From the IMG/VR virus record IMGVR_UViG_2675903417_000003: DNA of 46,078 nt. The stretch is one strand, 5' to 3'. Below the pieces are notes generated by a model. It saw only the letters and a program-made list of their open reading frames with translations. It did not search any database and was not told where the DNA came from. The translations under genes were made by a program, and so were the position numbers. Source of the DNA: a virus (lineage: Duplodnaviria > Heunggongvirae > Uroviricota > Caudoviricetes). Shown here in pieces: positions 1-46,078 of this stretch (positions are counted from its first letter, which is position 1; each line of letters starts with the position of its first letter).

Positions 1-1605
<1,605 letters not shown>

Positions 1606-3343: not shown

Positions 3344-3751
3344 TTATTTTATTGATTTATTTTTACGCGCTTTAAGCATTTCTTCGAAGAGTTTGTTGAA
3401 GTTTTCTACTCTTGCGCGCATTTCAGACAGCAAGGCTTCCTGCTCGGAAGATGGAAGAGCATCGAATAATTCGATCAATTCTTTGTGGTTGGGAGTTAGC
3501 TCTGTTTCCACATGAAGTTCTTGTGCAGGCACTGGTGCCTTGTCTTCGTCACCAAACATTAGCCATGTAGGTGAGCACTTCAGAGCATCCGCTAAAGCAA
3601 ACAATCGTTTTCCGACTGGCTGGGTTTCGTCTCTTTCCCATTGTGAAATTGTGACGTGAGCAACTCCAGCGAGGCGCGCAGCTTCTCGTTGTGTTAAGCG
3701 TAATTCTTTTCGTCGCGCCAGAACTCGCTGGCCTAGGGTTCTTGTATCCAT
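3344..3751 (-). CDS. dicA: DicA-like HTH (XRE/cI-type) repressor
   Basis: 135 aa; HTH LRLTQREAARLAGVAHVTISQWERDE and C-terminus close to recalled DicA; divergent from dicC. Confidence 0.9.
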   Translation of the reverse strand: MDTRTLGQRVLARRKELRLTQREAARLAGVAHVTISQWERDETQPVGKRLFALADALKCSPTWLMFGDEDKAPVPAQELHVETELTPNHKELIELFDALPSSEQEALLSEMRARVENFNKLFEEMLKARKNKSIK

Positions 3752-3774
3752 AGTTAGGTAATTCTAATTTTTCT

Positions 3775-3818
3775 TGACTTAGGTATCCCGCGCACAATAA
3801 TGTTAGAAAAGTCTAACA
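3775..3818 (+). promoter_or_regulatory. dicC promoter (-35 TTGACT 3775-3780, -10 ATAATG 3797-3802) overlapping the operator palindrome TGTTAGA-AAAG-TCTAACA (3801-3818)
   Basis: Sigma-70-like hexamers with 16-bp spacer; perfect 18-bp palindrome across the -10/+1 region in the dicA-dicC intergenic space. Confidence 0.5.
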
Positions 3819-3831
3819 AGAGGGGGCTTTG

Positions 3832-4059
3832 ATGCTTAAAGTTGACGCAATTACTTTTTTTGGCAGCAAAACAAAGCTTGCCAATGCCGCAGGGGTGAGA
3901 CTGGCAAGTGTTGCTGCTTGGGGGATACTGGTTCCTGAAGGTCGCGCGATGCGTCTACAGGAGGCATCTGGCGGGGAGCTTCAGTATGATCCCAAAGTTT
4001 ATGATGAATATCGTAAGACGAAGCGGGCGGGGCGGTTGAACAATGAAAATCACTCCTGA
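3832..4059 (+). CDS. dicC: DicC (Cro-like) regulator
   Basis: 75 aa MLKVDAITFFGSKTKLANAAGVRLASVAAWG...; AGGGGG Shine-Dalgarno at 3821-3826. Confidence 0.85.
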   Translation: MLKVDAITFFGSKTKLANAAGVRLASVAAWGILVPEGRAMRLQEASGGELQYDPKVYDEYRKTKRAGRLNNENHS

Positions 4060-7929: not shown

Positions 7930-9560
7930 AGCTGTAATGTCCCCTTTGAACCATTCTAAAATGTCCCCAGACAATTCTCTGGGGGATTTTTCATGATCAA
8001 AGAGACTGTTACGATGAGTCATAAGGAACTCCACCGACTTCAGATTATTCAGGAACAAGCTGCGGCACGCATTGGCATTTCTATTCGGCAGGTTAAACGT
8101 CTGGTGCAACGGTATAGAAATGAAGGGCCTTCTGGTCTGGTTTCCCACCGACGTGGAAAGCGTCCTAATAGTTCCTTTTCTACTGAATTCAGAGCAACAG
8201 TAATTTCACTCCTCAAAGGCCGTTACGCTGATTTTGGACCTACGTTTGCGTGCGAAAAATTGCGCGAGATACACGGTTTATCTTTATCCGTTGAAACTCT
8301 CAGAAAGTGGATGATAGAAGAGGGGTTATGGCGTGAACGCCGTCGTAAAATTGCCCGTATATATCAACGCCGCATGCGACGACCATCTTACGGTGAACTG
8401 ATCCAGATTGATGGCTCACCTCATGACTGGTTTGAAAATCGAGGCCCCAGATGTACACTGATCGTTTTCATTGATGATGCCACCAGTGCGTTGATGGCGT
8501 TGCGTTTTGTGCCTGCTGAAACAACCCGGGCTTACATGGAAACCCTCCGGGGTTACCTTAATGATCATGGCGTACCGCTCGCTCTCTACTCTGATAGACA
8601 CAGTATATTCAGGGTAAATAACCCAGAGCGGGAAGGTGAGCTGACCCAGTTCACTCGTGCGATAAAGACACTGGGCATCGAGCCAATCCATGCCAACAGC
8701 CCGCAGGCAAAAGGGCGGGTAGAGCGCGCCAATCAGACACTACAGGACAGGCTGGTCAAAGAAATGCGGCTTCAGAATATCAGTGATATTGAAACAGCAA
8801 ATGCATGGTTGCCGACCTTTATTGAAGCCTATAACAACCGGTTCGCTACGTCGCCTCGTACTACTGATAATGCTCATCTTGATGTGCACCATTCTGAAGA
8901 GGAACTGGGTTATATCTTCAGCCTACAGGCGAAGCGCGTTCTGTCTAAAAATCTCACTTTCCAGTACAAAAGCAGTGCGTTTCAGGTACGCAGTGAGGGC
9001 CGGGGATATCGACTTAGGCATTCGGTTGTTACTGTATGCGAGAACTTTGACGGTGAAATTAACGTTCTGTATGACGGGAAAGCGCTGGGCTGGGAAAAGT
9101 ATGTTGATGGCCCGGAGCCTATACCACTGGATGATGAAAAGAGTGTCCATGAACGAGTGGATAATGCCCGTATTGATTTACGCTCAAAATACTATGTTAA
9201 ACCTAAAGCTGACCATCCCTGGCTTACGCGCCGAACGCAAAGTCATCAGCAAGTTAAGCCCCCGAAGTTACCTAAAAAGAAGCCTGATCCCGATAAAAAA
9301 GATTGAAACCAAGATCGATTCGGTTGAGTGCATATCCATTCATAGGGTAGATTCTTAAGTCGCGTTTCTGGTGTTCATTTTCGGGTGGTTTGTTACTTGT
9401 TTTACCGGGGATATGCCAGAAACGCGCTGAGTCAGTCTGGGCGGTGCGCGTAATGAGGCGTTATGGTAAATAGCCTATGCTAATGTCCGCTAAGAGCAAG
9501 AAGCGGAAGTTGGCAGTTTTGTGGACTGTCCCCACAAAAGTGACTACAGAAATAGTTGCA
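7930..9560 (+). mobile_element. Insertion element carrying a DDE transposase (boundaries approximate, terminal repeats not resolved)
   Basis: Single 437-aa rve-type transposase inserted between the replication region and flxA. Confidence 0.4.
7993..9306 (+). CDS. DDE transposase with N-terminal HTH and rve integrase catalytic core
   Basis: 437 aa; HTH ISIRQVKRLVQRYRNEG; catalytic motifs IQIDGSPHDW, LYSDRHSIF and GRVERANQTLQDRL. Confidence 0.8.
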   Translation: MIKETVTMSHKELHRLQIIQEQAAARIGISIRQVKRLVQRYRNEGPSGLVSHRRGKRPNSSFSTEFRATVISLLKGRYADFGPTFACEKLREIHGLSLSVETLRKWMIEEGLWRERRRKIARIYQRRMRRPSYGELIQIDGSPHDWFENRGPRCTLIVFIDDATSALMALRFVPAETTRAYMETLRGYLNDHGVPLALYSDRHSIFRVNNPEREGELTQFTRAIKTLGIEPIHANSPQAKGRVERANQTLQDRLVKEMRLQNISDIETANAWLPTFIEAYNNRFATSPRTTDNAHLDVHHSEEELGYIFSLQAKRVLSKNLTFQYKSSAFQVRSEGRGYRLRHSVVTVCENFDGEINVLYDGKALGWEKYVDGPEPIPLDDEKSVHERVDNARIDLRSKYYVKPKADHPWLTRRTQSHQQVKPPKLPKKKPDPDKKD

Positions 9561-11456: not shown

Positions 11457-11577
11457 ATTTTCAACGCGTTTGAAGTTCTGGACGGTGCCGGAATAGAATC
11501 AAAAATACTTAAGTAGCGCGCAGGGATAAGAGGGATGGTCCCTTAAAGGGGAGAGCTAATTATCCGGAAGGATTCTG

Positions 11578-16426: not shown

Positions 16427-17459
<1,033 letters not shown>

Positions 17460-27905: not shown

Positions 27906-28484
27906 ATGGCCATAAAAGGTCTTGAGCAGGCCGTTGAAAACCTCAGCCGTATCAGCAAAACGGCGGTGCCTGGTGCCGCCGCAATGGCCATTAACCGCGT
28001 TGCTTCATCCGCGATATCGCAGTCGGCGTCACAGGTTGCCCGTGAGACAAAGGTACGCCGGAAACTGGTAAAGGAAAGGGCCAGGCTGAAAAGGGCCACG
28101 GTCAAAAATCCGCAGGCCAGAATCAAAGTTAACCGGGGGGATTTGCCCGTAATCAAGCTGCGTAATGCGCGGGTTGTCCTTTCGCGCCGCAGGCGTCGTA
28201 AAAAGGGGCAGCGTTCATCCCTGAAAGGTGGCGGCAGCGTGCTTGTGGTGGGTAACCGTCGTATTCCCGGCGCGTTTATTCAGCAACTGAAAAATGGCCG
28301 GTGGCATGTCATGCAGCGTGTGGCCGGGAAAAACCGTTACCCCATTGATGTGGTGAAAATCCCGATGGCGGTGCCGCTGACCACGGCGTTTAAACAAAAT
28401 ATTGAGCGGATACGGCGTGAACGTCTTCCGAAAGAGCTGGGCTATGCGCTGCAGCATCAACTGAGGATGGTAATAAAGCGATGA
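27906..28484 (+). CDS. Z: Tail completion protein Z
   Basis: 192 aa MAIKGLEQAVENLSRISKTAVPGAAAMAINR... Confidence 0.9.
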   Translation: MAIKGLEQAVENLSRISKTAVPGAAAMAINRVASSAISQSASQVARETKVRRKLVKERARLKRATVKNPQARIKVNRGDLPVIKLRNARVVLSRRRRRKKGQRSSLKGGGSVLVVGNRRIPGAFIQQLKNGRWHVMQRVAGKNRYPIDVVKIPMAVPLTTAFKQNIERIRRERLPKELGYALQHQLRMVIKR

Positions 28485-28876
28485 AACATACTGAACTCCG
28501 TGCAGCCGTACTGGATGCACTGGAGAAGCATGACACCGGGGCGACGTTTTTTGATGGTCGCCCCGCTGTTTTTGATGAGGCGGATTTTCCGGCAGTTGCC
28601 GTTTATCTCACCGGCGCTGAATACACGGGCGAAGAGCTGGACAGCGATACCTGGCAGGCGGAGCTGCATATCGAAGTTTTCCTGCCTGCTCAGGTGCCGG
28701 ATTCAGAGCTGGATGCGTGGATGGAGTCCCGGATTTATCCGGTGATGAGCGATATCCCGGCACTGTCAGATTTGATCACCAGTATGGTGGCCAGCGGCTA
28801 TGACTACCGGCGCGACGATGATGCGGGCCTGTGGAGTTCAGCCGATCTGACTTATGTCATTACCTATGAAATGTGA
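28481..28876 (+). CDS. U: Tail terminator protein U
   Basis: 131 aa [43 protein letters not shown]... Confidence 0.9.
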
Positions 28877-28883
28877 GGACGCT

Positions 28884-29624
28884 ATGCCTGTACCAAATCC
28901 TACAATGCCGGTGAAAGGTGCCGGGACCACCCTGTGGGTTTATAAGGGGAGCGGTGACCCTTATGCGAATCCGCTTTCAGACGTTGACTGGTCGCGTCTG
29001 GCAAAAGTTAAAGACCTGACGCCCGGCGAACTGACCGCTGAGTCCTATGACGACAGCTATCTCGATGATGAAGATGCAGACTGGACTGCGACCGGGCAGG
29101 GGCAGAAATCTGCCGGAGATACCAGCTTCACGCTGGCGTGGATGCCCGGAGAGCAGGGGCAGCAGGCGCTGCTGGCGTGGTTTAATGAAGGCGATACCCG
29201 TGCCTATAAAATCCGCTTCCCGAACGGCACGGTCGATGTGTTCCGTGGCTGGGTCAGCAGTATCGGTAAGGCGGTGACGGCGAAGGAAGTGATCACCCGC
29301 ACGGTGAAAGTCACCAATGTGGGACGTCCGTCGATGGCAGAAGATCGCAGCACGGTAACAGCGGCAACCGGCATGACCGTGACGCCTGCCAGCACCTCGG
29401 TGGTGAAAGGGCAGAGCACCACGCTGACCGTGGCCTTCCAGCCGGAGGGCGTAACCGACAAGAGCTTTCGTGCGGTGTCTGCGGATAAAACAAAAGCCAC
29501 CGTGTCGGTCAGTGGTATGACCATCACCGTGAACGGCGTTGCTGCAGGCAAGGTCAACATTCCGGTTGTATCCGGTAATGGTGAGTTTGCTGCGGTTGCA
29601 GAAATTACCGTCACCGCCAGTTAA
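28884..29624 (+). CDS. V: Major tail protein V
   Basis: 246 aa [31 protein letters not shown]... with C-terminal Ig-like region. Confidence 0.9.
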
Positions 29625-29639
29625 TCCGGAGAGTCAGCG

Positions 29640-30062
29640 ATGTTCCTGAAAACCGAATCATTTGAACATAACGGTGTGACCGTCACGCTTTCTGAACTGT
29701 CAGCCCTGCAGCGCATTGAGCATCTCGCCCTGATGAAACGGCAGGCAGAACAGGCGGAGTCAGACAGCAACCGGAAGTTTACTGTGGAAGACGCCATCAG
29801 AACCGGCGCGTTTCTGGTGGCGATGTCCCTGTGGCATAACCATCCGCAGAAGACGCAGATGCCGTCCATGAATGAAGCCGTTAAACAGATTGAGCAGGAA
29901 GTGCTTACCACCTGGCCCACGGAGGCAATTTCTCATGCTGAAAACGTGGTGTACCGGCTGTCTGGTATGTATGAGTTTGTGGTGAATAATGCCCCTGAAC
30001 AGACAGAGGACGCCGGGCCCGCAGAGCCTGTTTCTGCGGGAAAGTGTTCGACGGTGAGCTGA
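29640..30062 (+). CDS. G: Tail assembly chaperone G
   Basis: 140 aa; slippery heptamer GGGAAAG at 30036-30042 near its 3' end. Confidence 0.9.
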   Translation: MFLKTESFEHNGVTVTLSELSALQRIEHLALMKRQAEQAESDSNRKFTVEDAIRTGAFLVAMSLWHNHPQKTQMPSMNEAVKQIEQEVLTTWPTEAISHAENVVYRLSGMYEFVVNNAPEQTEDAGPAEPVSAGKCSTVS

Positions 30063-30478
30063 GTTTTGCCCTGAAACTGGCGCGTGAGATGGGGCGACCC
30101 GACTGGCGTGCCATGCTTGCCGGGATGTCATCCACGGAGTATGCCGACTGGCACCGCTTTTACAGTACCCATTATTTTCATGATGTTCTGCTGGATATGC
30201 ACTTTTCCGGGCTGACGTACACCGTGCTCAGCCTGTTTTTCAGCGATCCGGATATGCATCCGCTGGATTTCAGTCTGCTGAACCGGCGCGAGGCTGACGA
30301 AGAGCCTGAAGATGATGTGCTGATGCAGAAAGCGGCAGGGCTTGCCGGAGGTGTCCGCTTTGGCCCGGACGGGAATGAAGTTATCCCCGCTTCCCCGGAT
30401 GTGGCGGACATGACGGAGGATGACGTAATGCTGATGACAGTATCAGAAGGGATCGCAGGAGGAGTCCGGTATGGCTGA
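30042..30478 (+). CDS. T: T portion of the G-T tail assembly chaperone, expressed as a G-T fusion by -1 programmed frameshift
   Basis: The -1 frame after GGGAAAG reads ...GKVFDGELSFALKLAREMGRPDWRAMLAGM... to a stop at 30478; no independent start. Confidence 0.75.
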
Positions 30479-33030
30479 ACCGGTAGGCGATCTGGTCGTT
30501 GATTTGAGTCTGGATGCGGCCAGATTTGACGAGCAGATGGCCAGAGTCAGGCGTCATTTTTCCGGTACGGAAAGTGATGCGAAAAAAACAGCGGCAGTCG
30601 TTGAACAGTCGCTGAGCCGACAGGCGCTGGCTGCACAGAAAGCGGGGATTTCCGTCGGGCAGTATAAAGCCGCCATGCGTATGCTGCCTGCACAGTTCAC
30701 CGACGTGGCCACGCAGCTTGCAGGCGGGCAAAGTCCGTGGCTGATCCTGCTGCAACAGGGGGGGCAGGTGAAGGACTCCTTCGGCGGGATGATCCCCATG
30801 TTCAGGGGGCTTGCCGGTGCGATCACCCTGCCGATGGTGGGGGCCACCTCGCTGGCGGTGGCGACCGGTGCGCTGGCGTATGCCTGGTATCAGGGCAACT
30901 CAACCCTGTCCGATTTCAACAAAACGCTGGTCCTTTCCGGCAATCAGGCGGGACTGACGGCAGATCGTATGCTGGTCCTGTCCAGAGCCGGGCAGGCGGC
31001 AGGGCTGACGTTTAACCAGACCAGCGAGTCACTCAGCGCACTGGTTAAGGCGGGGGTAAGCGGTGAGGCTCAGATTGCGTCCATCAGCCAGAGTGTGGCG
31101 CGTTTCTCCTCTGCATCCGGCGTGGAGGTGGACAAGGTCGCTGAAGCCTTCGGGAAGCTGACCACAGACCCGACGTCGGGGCTGACGGCGATGGCACGCC
31201 AGTTCCATAACGTGACGGCGGAGCAGATTGCGTATGTTGCTCAGTTGCAGCGTTCCGGCGATGAAGCCGGGGCATTGCAGGCGGCGAACGAGGCCGCAAC
31301 GAAAGGGTTTGATGACCAGACCCGCCGCCTGAAAGAGAACATGGGCACGCTGGAGACCTGGGCAGACAGGACTGCGCGGGCATTCAAATCCATGTGGTGC
31401 GGTGCTGGATATTGGTCGTCCTGATACCGCGCAGGAGATGCTGATTAAGGCAGAGGCTGCGTTTAAGAAAGCAGACGACATCTGGAATCTGCGCAAGGAT
31501 GATTATTTTGTTAACGATGAAGCGCGGGCGCGTTACTGGGATGATCGTGAAAAGGCCCGTCTTGCGCTTGAAGCCGCCCGAAAGAAGGCTGAGCAGCAGA
31601 CTCAACAGGACAAAAATGCGCAGCAGCAGAGCGATACCGAAGCGTCACGGCTGAAATATACCGAAGAGGCGCAGAAGGCTTACGAACGGCTGCAGACGCC
31701 GCTGGAGAAATATACCGCCCGTCAGGAAGAACTGAACAAGGCACTGAAAGACGGGAAAATCCTGCAGGCGGATTACAACACGCTGATGGCGGCGGCGAAA
31801 AAGGATTATGAAGCGACGCTGAAAAAGCCGAAACAGTCCGGCGTGAAGGTGTCTGCGGGCGATCGTCAGGAAGACAGTGCTCATGCTGCCCTGCTGACGC
31901 TTCAGGCAGAACTCCGGACGCTGGAGAAGCATGCCGGAGCAAATGAGAAAATCAGCCAGCAGCGCCGGGATTTGTGGAAGGCGGAGAGTCAGTTCGCGGT
32001 ACTGGAGGAGGCGGCGCAACGTCGCCAGCTGTCTGCACAGGAGAAATCCCTGCTGGCGCATAAAGATGAGACGCTGGAGTACAAACGCCAGCTGGCTGCA
32101 CTTGGCGACAAGGTTACGTATCAGGAGCGCCTGAACGCGCTGGCGCAGCAGGCGGATAAATTCGCACAGCAGCAACGGGCAAAACGGGCCGCCATTGATG
32201 CGAAAAGCCGGGGGCTGACTGACCGGCAGGCAGAACGGGAAGCCACGGAACAGCGCCTGAAGGAACAGTATGGCGATAATCCGCTGGCGCTGAATAACGT
32301 CATGTCAGAGCAGAAAAAGACCTGGGCGGCTGAAGACCAGCTTCGCGGGAACTGGATGGCAGGCCTGAAGTCCGGCTGGAGTGAGTGGGAAGAGAGCGCC
32401 ACGGACAGTATGTCGCAGGTAAAAAGTGCAGCCACGCAGACCTTTGATGGTATTGCACAGAATATGGCAGCTATGCTGACCGGCAGTGAGCAGAACTGGC
32501 GCAGCTTCACCCGTTCCGTGCTGTCCATGATGACAGAAATTCTGCTTAAGCAGGCAATGGTGGGGATTGTCGGGAGTATCGGCAGCGCCATTGGCGGGGG
32601 TGTTGGTGGCGGCGCATCCGCGTCAGGCGGTACAGCCATTCAGGCCGCTGCGGCGAAATTCCATTTTGCAACCGGAGGATTTACGGGAACCGGCGGCAAA
32701 TATGAGCCAGCGGGGATTGTTCACCGTGGTGAGTTTGTCTTCACGAAGGAGGCAACCAGCCGGATTGGCGTGGGGAATCTTTACCGGCTGATGCGCGGCT
32801 ATGCCACCGGCGGTTATGTCGGTACACCGGGCAGCATGGCAGACAGCCGGTCGCAGGCGTCCGGGACGTTTGAGCAGAATAACCATGTGGTGATTAACAA
32901 CGACGGCACGAACGGGCAGATAGGTCCGGCTGCTCTGAAGGCGGTGTATGACATGGCCCGCAAGGGTGCCCGTGATGAAATTCAGACACAGATGCGTGAT
33001 GGTGGCCTGTTCTCCGGAGGTGGACGATGA
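30471..33030 (+). pseudogene. H: Tail tape-measure protein H, split by a frameshift near 31397
   Basis: ORFs 30471..31424 (317 aa) and 31402..33030 (542 aa) together match an ~853-aa tape measure; the junction ...AFKSMW / LDIGRPDTAQEM is consistent with a 2-bp deletion. Confidence 0.8.
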
Positions 33031-33356
33031 AGACCTTCCGCTGGAAAGTGAAACCCGGTATGGATGTGGCTTCGGTCCCTTCTGTAAGAAAGGTGCGCTT
33101 TGGTGATGGCTATTCTCAGCGAGCGCCTGCCGGGCTGAATGCCAACCTGAAAACGTACAGCGTGACGCTTTCTGTCCCCCGTGAGGAGGCCACGGTACTG
33201 GAGTCGTTTCTGGAAGAGCACGGGGGCTGGAAATCCTTTCTGTGGACGCCGCCTTATGAGTGGCGGCAGATAAAGGTGACCTGCGCAAAATGGTCGTCGC
33301 GGGTCAGTATGCTGCGTGTTGAGTTCAGCGCAGAGTTTGAACAGGTGGTGAACTGA
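33027..33356 (+). CDS. M: Tail tip protein M
   Basis: 109 aa MKTFRWKVKPGMDVASVPSVRKVRFGDGYSQRAPAGLN... Confidence 0.9.
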   Translation: MKTFRWKVKPGMDVASVPSVRKVRFGDGYSQRAPAGLNANLKTYSVTLSVPREEATVLESFLEEHGGWKSFLWTPPYEWRQIKVTCAKWSSRVSMLRVEFSAEFEQVVN

Positions 33357-34054
33357 TGCAGGATATCCGGCAGGAAACACTGAATGAATGCACCCGTGCG
33401 GAGCAGTCGGCCAGCGTGGTGCTCTGGGAAATCGACCTGACAGAGGTCGGTGGAGAACGTTATTTTTTCTGTAATGAGCAGAACGAAAAAGGTGAGCCGG
33501 TCACCTGGCAGGGGCGACAGTATCAGCCGTATCCCATTCAGGGGAGCGGTTTTGAACTGAATGGCAAAGGCACCAGTACGCGCCCCACGCTGACGGTTTC
33601 TAACCTGTACGGTATGGTCACCGGGATGGCGGAAGATATGCAGAGTCTGGTCGGCGGAACGGTGGTCCGGCGTAAGGTTTACGCCCGTTTTCTGGATGCG
33701 GTGAACTTCGTCAACGGAAACAGTTACGCCGATCCGGAGCAGGAGGTGATCAGCCGCTGGCGCATTGAGCAGTGCAGCGAACTGAGCGCGGTGAGTGCCT
33801 CCTTTGTACTGTCCACGCCGACGGAAACGGATGGCGCTGTTTTTCCGGGACGTATCATGCTGGCCAACACCTGCACCTGGACCTATCGCGGTGACGAGTG
33901 CGGTTATAGCGGTCCGGCTGTCGCGGATGAATATGACCAGCCAACGTCCGATATCACGAAGGATAAATGCAGCAAATGCCTGAGCGGCTGTAAGTTTCGC
34001 AATAACGTCGGCAACTTTGGCGGCTTCCTTTCCATTAACAAACTTTCGCAGTAA
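33356..34054 (+). CDS. L: Tail tip protein L
   Basis: 232 aa MQDIRQETLNECTRAEQSASVVLWEIDLTEVGGERYFFCNE... Confidence 0.9.
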   Translation: MQDIRQETLNECTRAEQSASVVLWEIDLTEVGGERYFFCNEQNEKGEPVTWQGRQYQPYPIQGSGFELNGKGTSTRPTLTVSNLYGMVTGMAEDMQSLVGGTVVRRKVYARFLDAVNFVNGNSYADPEQEVISRWRIEQCSELSAVSASFVLSTPTETDGAVFPGRIMLANTCTWTYRGDECGYSGPAVADEYDQPTSDITKDKCSKCLSGCKFRNNVGNFGGFLSINKLSQ

Positions 34055-34058
34055 TCCC

Positions 34059-34802
34059 ATGACAGAGACAGAATCAGCGATTCTGGCGCACGCCCGGCGA
34101 TGTGCGCCAGCGGAGTCGTGCGGCTTCGTGGTAAGCACGCCGGAGGGGGAAAGATATTTTCCCTGCGTGAATATTTCCGGTGAGCCGGAGGATTATTTCC
34201 GGATGGCTCCGGAGGACTGGCTGCAGGCAGAAATGCAGGGTGAGATTGTGGCGCTGGTCCACAGCCACCCCGGTGGTCTGCCCTGGCTGAGTGAGGCTGA
34301 CCGGCGGCTGCAGGTGCAGAGTGATTTGCCGTGGTTGCTGGTCTGCCGGGGGGCGATTCATAAGTTCCGCTGTGTGCCGCATCTCACCGGGCGGCGCTTT
34401 GAGCACGGGGTGACGGACTGTTACACGCTGTTCCGGGATGCTTATCATCTGGCGGGGATTGAGATGCCGGATTTTCATCGCGGGGATGACTGGTGGCGTC
34501 ACGGCCAGAATCTCTATCTGGATAATCTGGAGGCCACAGGGCTGTATCAGGTGCCGTTGTCATCAGCACAACCGGGCGATGTGCTGCTGTGCTGTTTTGG
34601 TTCATCGGTGCCGAATCATGCCGCCATTTACTGTGGTGACGGCGAGCTGCTGCACCATATTCCTGAACAACTGAGCAAACGAGAGAGGTATACCGACAAA
34701 TGGCAGCGACGCACACACTCCCTCTGGCGTCACCGGGCATGGCGCGCATCTGCCTTTACGGGGATTTACAACGATTTGGCCGCCGCATCGACCTTCGTGT
34801 GA
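34059..34802 (+). CDS. K: Tail tip assembly protein K (JAB/MPN plus NlpC/P60-like)
   Basis: 247 aa from MTETESAIL...; HSHPGG metalloprotease-like motif and downstream Cys/His residues; an alternative internal start at 34203 would give 199 aa. Confidence 0.8.
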   Translation: MTETESAILAHARRCAPAESCGFVVSTPEGERYFPCVNISGEPEDYFRMAPEDWLQAEMQGEIVALVHSHPGGLPWLSEADRRLQVQSDLPWLLVCRGAIHKFRCVPHLTGRRFEHGVTDCYTLFRDAYHLAGIEMPDFHRGDDWWRHGQNLYLDNLEATGLYQVPLSSAQPGDVLLCCFGSSVPNHAAIYCGDGELLHHIPEQLSKRERYTDKWQRRTHSLWRHRAWRASAFTGIYNDLAAASTFV

Positions 34803-39568: not shown

Positions 39569-39579
39569 GTGGGGTGAAT

Positions 39580-42500
39580 ATGGCAGTAAAGATTTCAGGT
39601 GTACTGAAAGACGGCACAGGAAAACCGGTACAGAACTGCACAATCCAGCTGAAAGCAAAACGTAACAGCACCACGGTGGTGGTGAACACGCTGGCCTCAG
39701 AAAATCCGGATGAAGCCGGGCGTTACAGCATGGACGTTGAGTACGGTCAGTACAGCGTTATTCTGTTGGTGGAAGGATTCCCGCCGTCACATGCCGGGAC
39801 CATCACCGTGTATGAAGATTCCCGACCCGGTACGCTGAATGATTTTCTCGGTGCCATGACGGAGGATGATGCCCGTCCGGAGGCTCTGCGCCGTTTTGAA
39901 CTGATGGTGGAAGAGGTGGCGCGTAACGCGTCCGCGGTGGCACAGAACACGGCAGCCGCGAAGAAGTCAGCCAGTGATGCCGGCACATCTGCCAGTGAGG
40001 CGGCAACCCATGCGACTGATGCTGCAGGCTCAGCGCGTGCAGCCAGCACGTCAGCCGGACAGGCCGCGACGTCGGCTCAGGAGGCGTCTTCCAGCGCAGG
40101 AACGGCATCAACAAAGGCCACTGAAGCATCAAAAAGTGCTGCCGCTGCAGAGTCCTCAAAAAGCGCGGCGGCCACCAGTGCCGGTGCCGCGAAAACGTCA
40201 GAAACGAATGCTGCAGCGTCACAAAAATCAGCAGCCACTTCTGCATCCACTGCGACGACGAAAGCGTCAGAAGCCGCCACTTCAGCCCGGGATGCGGCGG
40301 CCTCCAAAGAGGCGGCAAAATCATCAGAAACGAACGCCTCCACAAGCGCCAGCAGTGCAGCCTCCTCGGCAACGGCGGCAGGAAATTCCGTGAAGGCGGC
40401 AAAAACGTCCGAGACGAATGCTAAGTCTTCTGAAACGGCAGCGGAACAGAGCGCCTCAGCTGCGGCAGACTCTGAGACAACAGCTGCATCATCGGCCCGT
40501 GAGGCGTCCATTAAGGCAGAGGAGGCAGCAGTCAGTGCCACCGCCGCCGGAAAATCGGCAGAAAGCGCCGCATCATCCGCTTCAACAGCCACAACGAAGG
40601 CTGGCGAAGCCACTGAACAGGCCAGCGCAGCAGCGAGGTCTGCTTCCGCAGCGAAGACATCCGAAACGAACGCGAAAGCGTCGGAAACCAGCGCAGAATC
40701 CTCAAAAACGGCTGCCGCATCGTCCGCCAGTTCGGCGGCGTCATCGGCATCATCGGCGTCTGCTTCAAAAGATGAGGCGACCAGACAGGCGTCAGCAGCG
40801 AGGGGCAGCGCCACGACGGCATCCACGAAGGCGACAGAGGCTGCTGGCAGTGCGGCAGCGGCAGCACAGAGCAAAAGTACGGCAGAATCCGCAGCAACGC
40901 GCGCCGAGACAGCAGCAAAACGGGCAGAGGATATTGCATCCGCCGTGGCGCTTGAGGATGCGAGCACGACGAAAAAGGGGATAGTACAGCTCAGTAGTGC
41001 GACTAACAGCACTTCCGAGTCACTGGCGGCAACACCAAAAGCCGTTAAGGCCGCGTATGACCTGGCTAACGGGAAATACACCGCACAGGATGCAACGACA
41101 GCACAGAAAGGGATAATCCAGCTAAGCAGCGCGACCAACAGCACGTCTGAAACGCTTGCCGCGACACCAAAGGCAGTAAAAGCAGCCAATGACAATGCTG
41201 AGAAACGTCTGCAGAAAGATCAGAACGGTGCGGATATCCCTGGCAAAGATACCTTTACGAAAAATATTGGTGCCTGCCGTGCCTTCGGTGGGTCAGTAAG
41301 CACAACAACAGGAAACTGGACGACTGCACAGTTTATCGAGTGGCTGGATTCTCAGGGAGCATTTAACCATCCATACTGGATGTGCAAGGGTTCCTGGTCT
41401 TATGGCAATAATAAAATCATTACTGATACTGACTGCGGTAATATTCATCTCGCCGGAGCTGTCATTGAAGTAATGGGGATAAAGTCAGCGATGACGATCC
41501 GCATTACCACACCGACCACCTCCACTGGTGGTGGAACAACTAACGCCCAGTTTACCTATATTAATCACGGAACAGATTATTCACCTGGCTGGCGAAGGGA
41601 CTATAACTCCAGAAATAAGCCAACGGCATCAGAGATCGGGGCGTTACCGTCAGGTGGAACAGCAGTATCATCAGTTAATCTGGCTTCAAAAGGTCGGGTA
41701 ACCGCGCTGACAGACAATACGCAGGGGGCAGCAGGTCTTGAGTTATACGAGGTGTATAACAACGGATATCCAACAGCGTATGGAAATATCATTCACCTGA
41801 AAGGGATGACAGCCGTTGGCGAAGGTGAGTTACTCATCGGCTGGAGTGGTACAAGCGGTGCTCATGCTCCGGCATTTATTCGTTCACGACGGGATACGAC
41901 CGACGCAAACTGGTCGCCGTGGGCGCAGCTTTACACCTCGGCTCATCCTCCTGCAGAGTTTTATCCAGTCGGTGCACCAATCCCGTGGCCATCAGATACC
42001 GTTCCGTCTGGCTATGCCCTGATGCAGGGGCAGACTTTTGACAAATCTGCATACCCGAAACTTGCAGCGGCTTATCCGTCAGGCGTGATCCCTGATATGC
42101 GTGGCTGGACGATTAAGGGCAAACCTGCCAGTGGTCGGGCCGTATTGTCTCAGGAACAGGACGGCATTAAATCGCATACCCACAGCGCCAGCGCATCCAG
42201 TACGGATTTGGGGACGAAAACCACATCGTCGTTTGATTACGGCACTAAATCCACGAATAACACTGGTGCGCATACCCATAGTTTAAGTGGCAGCACGAAT
42301 GCAGCTGGTAATCACAGCCATAGAGATGGCCGTCGATTTAACCCCAGTGTTTTTAAAGATACTTATCAATATGGTTATACAAGCTCAGGTCAAAATACCT
42401 GGGGTGTACAAGGCTCAGTAGGTATGTCTACGGGGTGGTTAGCTAATACCAGTACAGATGGTAATCATAGCCACTCACTGTCCGGCACAGCAGCATCTGC

Positions 42501-42651
42501 AGGTGCACACGCGCATACTGTCGGTATTGGTGCTCATACGCACTCCGTTGCGATTGGTTCACATGGACACACCATCACCGTTAACGCTGCTGGTAACGCG
42601 GAAAACACCGTCAAAAACATCGCATTTAACTATATTGTGAGGCTTGCATAA
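39580..42651 (+). CDS. stf: Side tail fiber protein Stf
   Basis: 1023 aa from [27 protein letters not shown]...; long Ala/Ser/Thr-rich repeats; C-terminal HxH-repeat distal domain. Confidence 0.9.
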
Positions 42652-45225: not shown

Positions 45226-45911
45226 ATGGGAAAAAACACCTGTGAATTATGGATTTCCAGTTATATTCGCTCGGCGCAGCGTTAGTGTTTCATGAAATAT
45301 TTTTTCCTGAATCATCAACGGCAATGGCGTTAATTCTGGCAATGGGAACCTACGGTGCAGGTTATGTGGCGCGTATTGTCGGAGCATTTATTTTCGGCAA
45401 AATGGGCGACAGAATAGGGCGTAAAAAAGTGCTCTTTATTACCATCACCATGATGGGGATCTGTACCACCTTAATTGGTGTGTTACCGACCTATGCACAG
45501 ATTGGTGTTTTTGCCCCCATCTTGCTGGTGACGCTGCGTATTATTCAGGGATTGGGTGCAGGTGCGGAAATTTCCGGTGCCGGTACGATGCTGGCGGAAT
45601 ATGCGCCAAAAGGTAAGCGCGGAATTATCTCCTCATTTGTGGCTATGGGAACTAACTGCGGAACCTTAAGCGCAACGGCAATCTGGGCCTTTATGTTCTT
45701 CATTCTCAGTAAAGAGGAACTGCTGGCGTGGGGATGGCGTATACCGTTCCTGGCGAGCGTTGTCGTGATGGTCTTTGCTATCTGGTTACGTATGAATCTG
45801 AAAGAAAGCCCGGTCTTTGAGAAGGTTAATGACAGCAACCAACCGACAGCAAAACCTGCACCTGCTGGTAGCATGTTCCAGAGCAAATCCTTCTGGCTGG
45901 GGCTTTGTTGA
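45226..45911 (+). pseudogene. ydfJ: MFS transporter gene (metabolite:H+ symporter type, YdfJ-like), frameshifted near codon 8 and 3'-truncated by an IS
   Basis: MGKNTCE.. in one frame, then DFQLYSLGAALVF...GDRIGRK... from 45249 in another; the reading frame ends a few codons into the IS903-like repeat. Confidence 0.6.
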
Positions 45912-46078
45912 ATAAATCGAACTTTTGCTGAGTTGAAGGATCAGATCACGTATCTTCCCGACAACGCAGACCGTTCCGTGGCAAAGCAAAAGTTCAAAAT
46001 CACCAACTGGCCCACCTACAATAAAGCCCTCATCAACCGTGGCTCCATAACTTTCTGGCTGGATGATGAAGCTATTCA
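45901..46078 (+). mobile_element. IS903-like (IS5-family) element, left end, continues past the window
   Basis: Starts with the terminal repeat GGCTTTGTTGAATAAATCGAACTTTTGCTGAGTTGAAGGATCAGATCAC... Confidence 0.8.
45978..46078 (+). CDS. IS903-like transposase, N-terminal fragment (partial at window end)
   Basis: Frame VAKQKFKITNWPTYNKALINRGSITFWLDDEAI from a GTG start. Confidence 0.7.
   Translation, partial: MAKQKFKITNWPTYNKALINRGSITFWLDDEAI

Follow-up and report, generated by a model that had tools for sequence, protein, structure and literature searches.

Tape-measure gene H is split by a two-base deletion in a Qin-type lambdoid prophage at ydfJ

Gene H, which encodes the tail length tape-measure protein, is broken in a Qin-type lambdoid prophage at ydfJ by the loss of two bases, GA of codon D310, and we consider it highly probable (roughly 90%) that this is a genuine, recent and clonally inherited 2-bp deletion. 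The DNA analysed here, referred to as the window, is the entire draft contig JXVP01000033.1 (46,078 bp) from the E. coli draft genome GCA_000948675.1. The coordinates of H, of the deletion junction and of the surrounding features are collected in Table 1.

Table 1 Coordinates of gene H, the deletion junction and neighbouring features in the window
Feature	Position	Strand	Details
IS3-family element end	1–638	.	End of the contig; 99–99.8% identity to many E. coli copies; rve-domain ORF
Truncated recE (exonuclease VIII)	639–1605	-	Residues 1–322 of 823; cut by the IS3-family element
Lambda-type structural module, nu1 to tfa	20123–43226	+	End-to-end tblastn to lambda and PhiR42_1 proteins
Tail assembly chaperone gene G	29640–30062	+	Intact; protein 100% identical to lambda G
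Tail assembly chaperone gene T	30044–30478	+	Intact; protein 100% identical to lambda T
H pseudogene (tail length tape-measure protein)	30471–33030	+	99.6% identity to lambda H
Upstream ORF, 317 aa	30471–31424	+	H residues 1–309 plus 8 out-of-frame residues (CGAGYWSS); TGA at 31422–31424
Deletion junction	31397–31398	+	GA absent (lambda nt 11469–11470, codon D310)
Downstream ORF, 542 aa	31402–33030	+, +1 frame	H residues 312–853
Gene M	33027–33356	+	After H
Gene L	33356–34054	+	After M
Right host flank	45249–46078	+	ydfJ' (Qin integration site) to ~45900, then IS903B fragment 45901–46078, which is the end of the contig

Sequence identifies the element as a lambdoid prophage of the Qin type that sits in ydfJ, since ydfJ' forms the right flank and dicB, relBE, hokD, csp genes, pinQ and ydfK are all present. 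Its gene content also includes ydfC/D, rem, ydfU, Q, cspB/F/I, essD, rrrQ, rzpQ and gnsB. The Qin (Kim) cryptic prophage of E. coli K-12 occupies the same ydfJ site and has the same early and accessory genes. Many Qin-type remnants at ydfJ, six loci among them, have lost most or all of their structural genes, whereas the window keeps the whole module. Phage PhiR42_1 (PV340562), a fuller relative of Qin, encodes early and accessory proteins that are mostly 100% identical to those of the window, and across the lysis and early or regulatory genes almost all proteins are 100% identical between the two. We take PhiR42_1 to be a viable phage because its record is that of a complete phage genome and names a host, ECOR13. 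The H frameshift and the IS in recE are found in the window and not in PhiR42_1, and the immunity regions of the two differ (cI 57%).

Compared with phage lambda (NC_001416; gpH, NP_040595, 853 aa), window positions 30471–33030 (2560 nt) correspond to the entire gene H (2562 nt) at 99.6% DNA identity, a level shared with H of many lambda relatives, and a chance pattern can be dismissed on the strength of this direct alignment. In a tblastn search with lambda H, residues 1–309 align to 30471–31397 and residues 303–853 to 31375–33030 in the +1 frame. The preliminary description of this DNA had proposed that two adjacent ORFs of 317 and 542 aa together correspond to an 853-aa lambda-type tape measure, with two bases missing where lambda encodes W-D-A-V-L-D, and both proposals are borne out by the alignments. 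The letters at window 31392–31410 are atgtggtgcggtgctggat, and the junction aligns with one two-column gap, lambda ATGTGGGATGCGGTG against window ATGTGG--TGCGGTG. Lambda reads ATG TGG GAT GCG GTG CTG GAT (M W D A V L D) at this site and the window lacks the GA of GAT, the codon of D310; TGGGATGCG is the undeleted, intact-H reading. The downstream ORF starts with a GTG, the codon of V312.

The two ORFs divide between them the domain pair of the lambda protein, with Pfam TMP_2 (PF06791) on the 317-aa ORF (E = 8e-71) and Tape_meas_lam_C (PF09718) on the 542-aa ORF (E = 1.1e-21). Lambda gene H has this same pair in a continuous frame, whereas the frame in the window is split. H also lies where it is expected for the lambda gpH-type family, between the G/T chaperones and M-L-K-I-J. 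Both domains and the gene position are therefore those of the family, and the single frame of ~853 codons is broken at 31397/31398; judged by its sequence, H here is a pseudogene of the lambda gpH-type family, a presumptive non-functional member.

The local sequence offers a possible origin for the lesion. Window 31396–31405 is a perfect tandem GGTGC GGTGC (GGTGCGGTGC), and the undeleted form is the imperfect GG(GA)TGC GGTGC. Because the deletion turns an imperfect repeat into a perfect tandem, this arrangement suggests that it may have arisen during replication by templated misalignment between the adjacent quasi-repeats GG(GA)TGC and GGTGC. Plain one-step slippage in the GGG run was rejected, as it would drop one base and not GA.

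Outside H, the structural module is complete. The 22 other head and tail genes (nu1, A, W, B, C/Nu3, D, E, FI, FII, Z, U, V, G, T, M, L, K, I, J, lom, stf and tfa) are full length with their stop codons, each aligning end to end by tblastn with its counterpart in lambda and/or PhiR42_1, as expected from the earlier impression that the genes neighbouring H are intact. Measured against lambda and PhiR42_1, no indel other than the H deletion breaks a reading frame of the module without compensation; the rest fall between genes, have lengths divisible by three, or occur as compensated pairs where the sequence has diverged. H had also been presented as a single lesion, and this description applies to the structural module only: elsewhere, recE is cut by an IS at 638/639, and the int and xis genes of a PhiR42_1-type left arm are not on this contig, whose left end is the IS inside recE. 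Short-read assemblies usually break in ISs and both ends of the window lie in an IS, so the prophage may reach further left than the contig, and int and xis may be located past the IS.

Two further features of the module concern its relationship to lambda. Across the U-V-G-T-(H)-M-L block (28481–34054), the U, V, G, T, M and L proteins are 100% identical to those of lambda, and the genes adjoining the block diverge from lambda (FI 88%, J 88%, lom 47%); by this pattern of identities, 28481–34054 reads as a mosaic segment. The side-fibre gene stf (39574–42651) is a single full-length ORF of 1025 aa, whereas stf of laboratory lambda is split by a frameshift into orf-401 and orf-314 (RefSeq annotation; the frameshift is also mentioned in PMC10721106).

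In lambda, the 853-aa gpH is the length ruler for the tail tube, which is filled by six copies of the protein; in the tip complex, gpI binds its C-terminal helix (residues 818–849), and gpH* subsequently serves as a periplasmic DNA conduit or ejection channel (PMC12617516, PMC10721106). The major tail protein gpV polymerizes on the J/H scaffold (PMC3224144). Since the requirement for gpH is established, we infer that this prophage has most likely lost autonomous tail assembly; established directly were the sequence itself, the deletion and the fact that it is reproducible and missing from relatives, and the lack of any recoding signal. Translation from the H start would stop after 317 residues, comprising H 1–309 and 8 missense residues, and the remaining 542 codons, which have no proper initiation signal, would at best yield a minor separate fragment. 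gpH has to act as a continuous ruler, with its C-terminus in the tail tip (gpI/gpJ/gpL/gpM) and its length setting the point at which gpV polymerization stops; the 317-residue N-terminal fragment is without the tip-anchoring end, and any C-terminal fragment would be without the N-terminal third, including the hydrophobic segment 116–140. With its head, lysis and remaining tail genes intact, the prophage would be expected to make heads and lyse the cell, yet to form no tails by itself.

Rescue by co-resident lambdoid prophages, through either trans-complementation or recombinational repair, is plausible, because 3,620 of 5,426 complete E. coli genomes contain the H segment, a single genome having as many as 5 copies, and because there is a precedent for the transfer of defective prophages: defective lambdoid prophages of O157 are packaged, transferred and repaired by recombination within the prophage pool (PMC2669165).

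A different route to tails would be open if the split gene still worked, either by +1 frameshifting within 31333–31424 or as a two-piece tape measure (fragments 1–317 and 312/324–853) made by re-initiation past the TGA; we regard this as very unlikely. The geometry is permissive: both frames are open over these 92 nt (+ strand), so that a +1 shift anywhere in the zone, for example at UCC-UGA (31419–31424), restores a near-full-length H, and the in-frame ATG 31438 comes 14 nt after the upstream stop, making coupled re-initiation possible. UCC-UGA is not known as a high-efficiency +1 site, and no lambda precedent is known for a ruler built from two unlinked pieces. The zone 31333–31424 contains no homopolymer of four or more bases, no CTTTGA, CCCTGA or A-rich heptamers, and no stimulator resembling a Shine–Dalgarno (SD) sequence. 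For the downstream half, no well-placed SD was found at GTG 31402 or ATG 31438, at which the anti-SD duplex energies are −2.1 and +0.6 kcal/mol, respectively, compared with −5.9 to −10.8 kcal/mol at the true starts of Z, U, V, G, H, M and L.

With no slippery motif and no usable downstream ribosome-binding site, programmed recoding is unlikely. Programmed frameshifting was rejected on the lack of a shift-prone motif and on the distribution of the frame break, which is confined to one clone, every examined relative keeping a single ORF, and so is not conserved among relatives as that of a recoding site would be. Independent translation of the C-terminal half is likewise unlikely, as it lacks an SD sequence. 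A functional frameshift product had been named at the outset as an observation that could overturn the reading of H as defective, and the sequence yielded no recoding signal for one.

In favour of a working split gene, few gpH copies suffice per tail (PMC12617516), low-level compensatory frameshifting at ‘savior’ indels is known elsewhere (PMC5009743), and PHROG families made from tape-measure (TMP) fragments indicate that phage records repeatedly contain split TMP genes of the lambda type. The PHROGs built from lambda-type TMP fragments that match window 30471–31421 and 31402–33027 are phrog_4498 (381 positions), phrog_3827 (393), phrog_6747 (390) and phrog_4346 (600). We nevertheless give very little credence to the idea that rare +1 frameshifting or termination–reinitiation supplies enough tape measure for occasional functional or shorter tails. 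If true, the clone would keep a ‘throttled’ yet transmissible prophage, with a ‘savior indel’ in a phage structural gene.

The case for a genuine deletion also has to be weighed against a sequencing or assembly artefact, in which the two bases are missing only from the record and the gene itself is whole. The contig comes from a draft assembly, and the allele is hard to find elsewhere: the deleted junction occurs in 0 of 5,426 complete E. coli genomes, in which the best matches align 303 nt to the window's 301, and the exact junction has no match in GTDB species representatives, IMG/VR or JGI metagenomes. The null scans of these last three collections say only that the allele is rare. Against an artefact, at least two SRA runs that Logan assembled independently carry the deletion in contigs that are 100% identical to the window over 14–21 kb, junction included (20,954 bp for SRR17721991 and 13,733 bp for SRR17721990). 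In a public protein collection, the exact 317-aa product, with its out-of-frame tail, occurs in 31 index blocks (~30 contigs), and the exact 542-aa product in 28 index blocks (~27 contigs). Reproducibility was judged throughout on assembled contigs, the two SRA runs having been assembled independently.

The context of the site argues in the same direction. There is no homopolymer at the junction, and GGGAT is the reading between these flanks in thousands of assemblies, which makes a systematic context error unlikely. At least 120 IMG/VR contigs contain the 37-mer that directly follows the deletion on its 3′ side, and each of the 120 reads ...ATGTGGGAT upstream, with the bases intact. The rest of the contig is almost without indels relative to its near-identical relative FAM21845, from which it differs in homopolymer length once in ~35 kb, so the assembly is not indel-prone. 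An artefact is accordingly extremely unlikely, and the assembly error for which the preliminary description had allowed is answered by the two SRA assemblies and the ~30 contigs that reproduce the deletion or the truncated product.

The same contigs indicate that the genuine deletion is inherited. The ydfJ::IS903B fusion ORF at the right end of the window is found on 2 contigs only, and the 375-aa recE::IS fusion ORF at the left end on 1 contig only, the present one. These IS fusion ORFs are far rarer than the split H, and the deletion is thus common to isolates with different IS content. The carriers are identical over the compared stretch and may represent repeated sequencing of very few isolates.

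Close relatives place the deletion in time. The complete genomes FAM21845, 873.10 and N12 match window 28800–34100 at 100.0% identity (5,303 nt against 5,301), and base by base the two H bases are the sole difference between FAM21845 and the window in this interval. E. coli FAM21845 (NZ_CP017220) and O18ac:H14 strain 873.10 (NZ_CP061754) carry sibling prophages at the same ydfJ site with H intact; their H is annotated as such (WP_063854689.1) and equals that of the window save for the 2-bp gap. The FAM21845 prophage (locus 12588), the only sibling aligned base by base, has 6 substitutions relative to the window in 32.8 kb; the other differences are the H deletion, a 9-bp repeat with an unequal number of copies (in frame), an intergenic G6/G5 run and a 1-bp deletion in the J of FAM21845. 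Given these relatives with an intact H, the deletion is very recent and restricted to one clone.

The siblings carry lesions of their own. FAM21845 has a 1-bp deletion in J, which is annotated as frameshifted, together with insertions of IS1B and ISSen4; its left arm is gone. In 873.10, an IS1B-associated loss has removed the early region, from part of int through the Q region, so that the first prophage gene past the IS is ynfU; its structural genes are intact. Members of one prophage lineage have in this way each been disabled independently: by a frameshift in H here, by a frameshift in J with ISs in FAM21845, and by an IS1-mediated deletion in 873.10.

A rival reading is that truncation of H was selected, with the host benefiting from a disarmed prophage or from the 317-aa fragment itself, which includes the hydrophobic segment 116–140. 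The persistence of the allele in an often-sampled clone, the intactness of the other genes and the disarming of the siblings by different lesions all fit such a scenario. However, 6 substitutions in 32.8 kb from a sibling with an intact H leave too little time for intactness elsewhere to indicate selection, other lineages showed neither this truncation nor a similar one (5,426 complete E. coli genomes, 120 IMG/VR contigs), and neutral decay accounts for all observations. Selection for the truncation is in our judgement exceedingly improbable. The event is ordinary prophage decay, of an already-known kind, with no departure from known biology, and the H split raises no new biological question.

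Comparable lesions have been described in other lambdoid genomes. Defective lambdoid prophages of O157 Sakai (PMC2669165), like laboratory lambda with its stf, have frameshifts or ISs in single morphogenetic genes of genomes that are otherwise complete. The gene hit in the window is the essential tape measure, whereas in laboratory lambda it is a dispensable side fibre. The Sakai prophages have been studied functionally (PMC2669165), the present prophage through its sequence.

For annotation, the consequence is that H becomes a pseudogene and the prophage moves to the tail-defective class despite a gene set that looks complete. Most prophage finders would probably call the element ‘intact’ from its gene content.

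The early and lysis regions contain three additional features. A 437-aa transposase-like ORF (7993–9306, + strand) in the early region matches HTH_32/HTH_29 and, weakly, rve_3; PhiR42_1 carries it at the corresponding position, so it is apparently tolerated by a viable phage. At 17363–17386, the Rz-like gene rzpQ contains a 9-bp tandem repeat, TGCTGAAAT, of which the window has one copy more than PhiR42_1 and FAM21845, in frame. Finally, the immunity region (3424–3921) is swapped relative to PhiR42_1, with a cI-like repressor at 57% and Cro/DicC at 86% between flanking genes at 100%; by these identities, the swap is a typical lambdoid mosaic joint.
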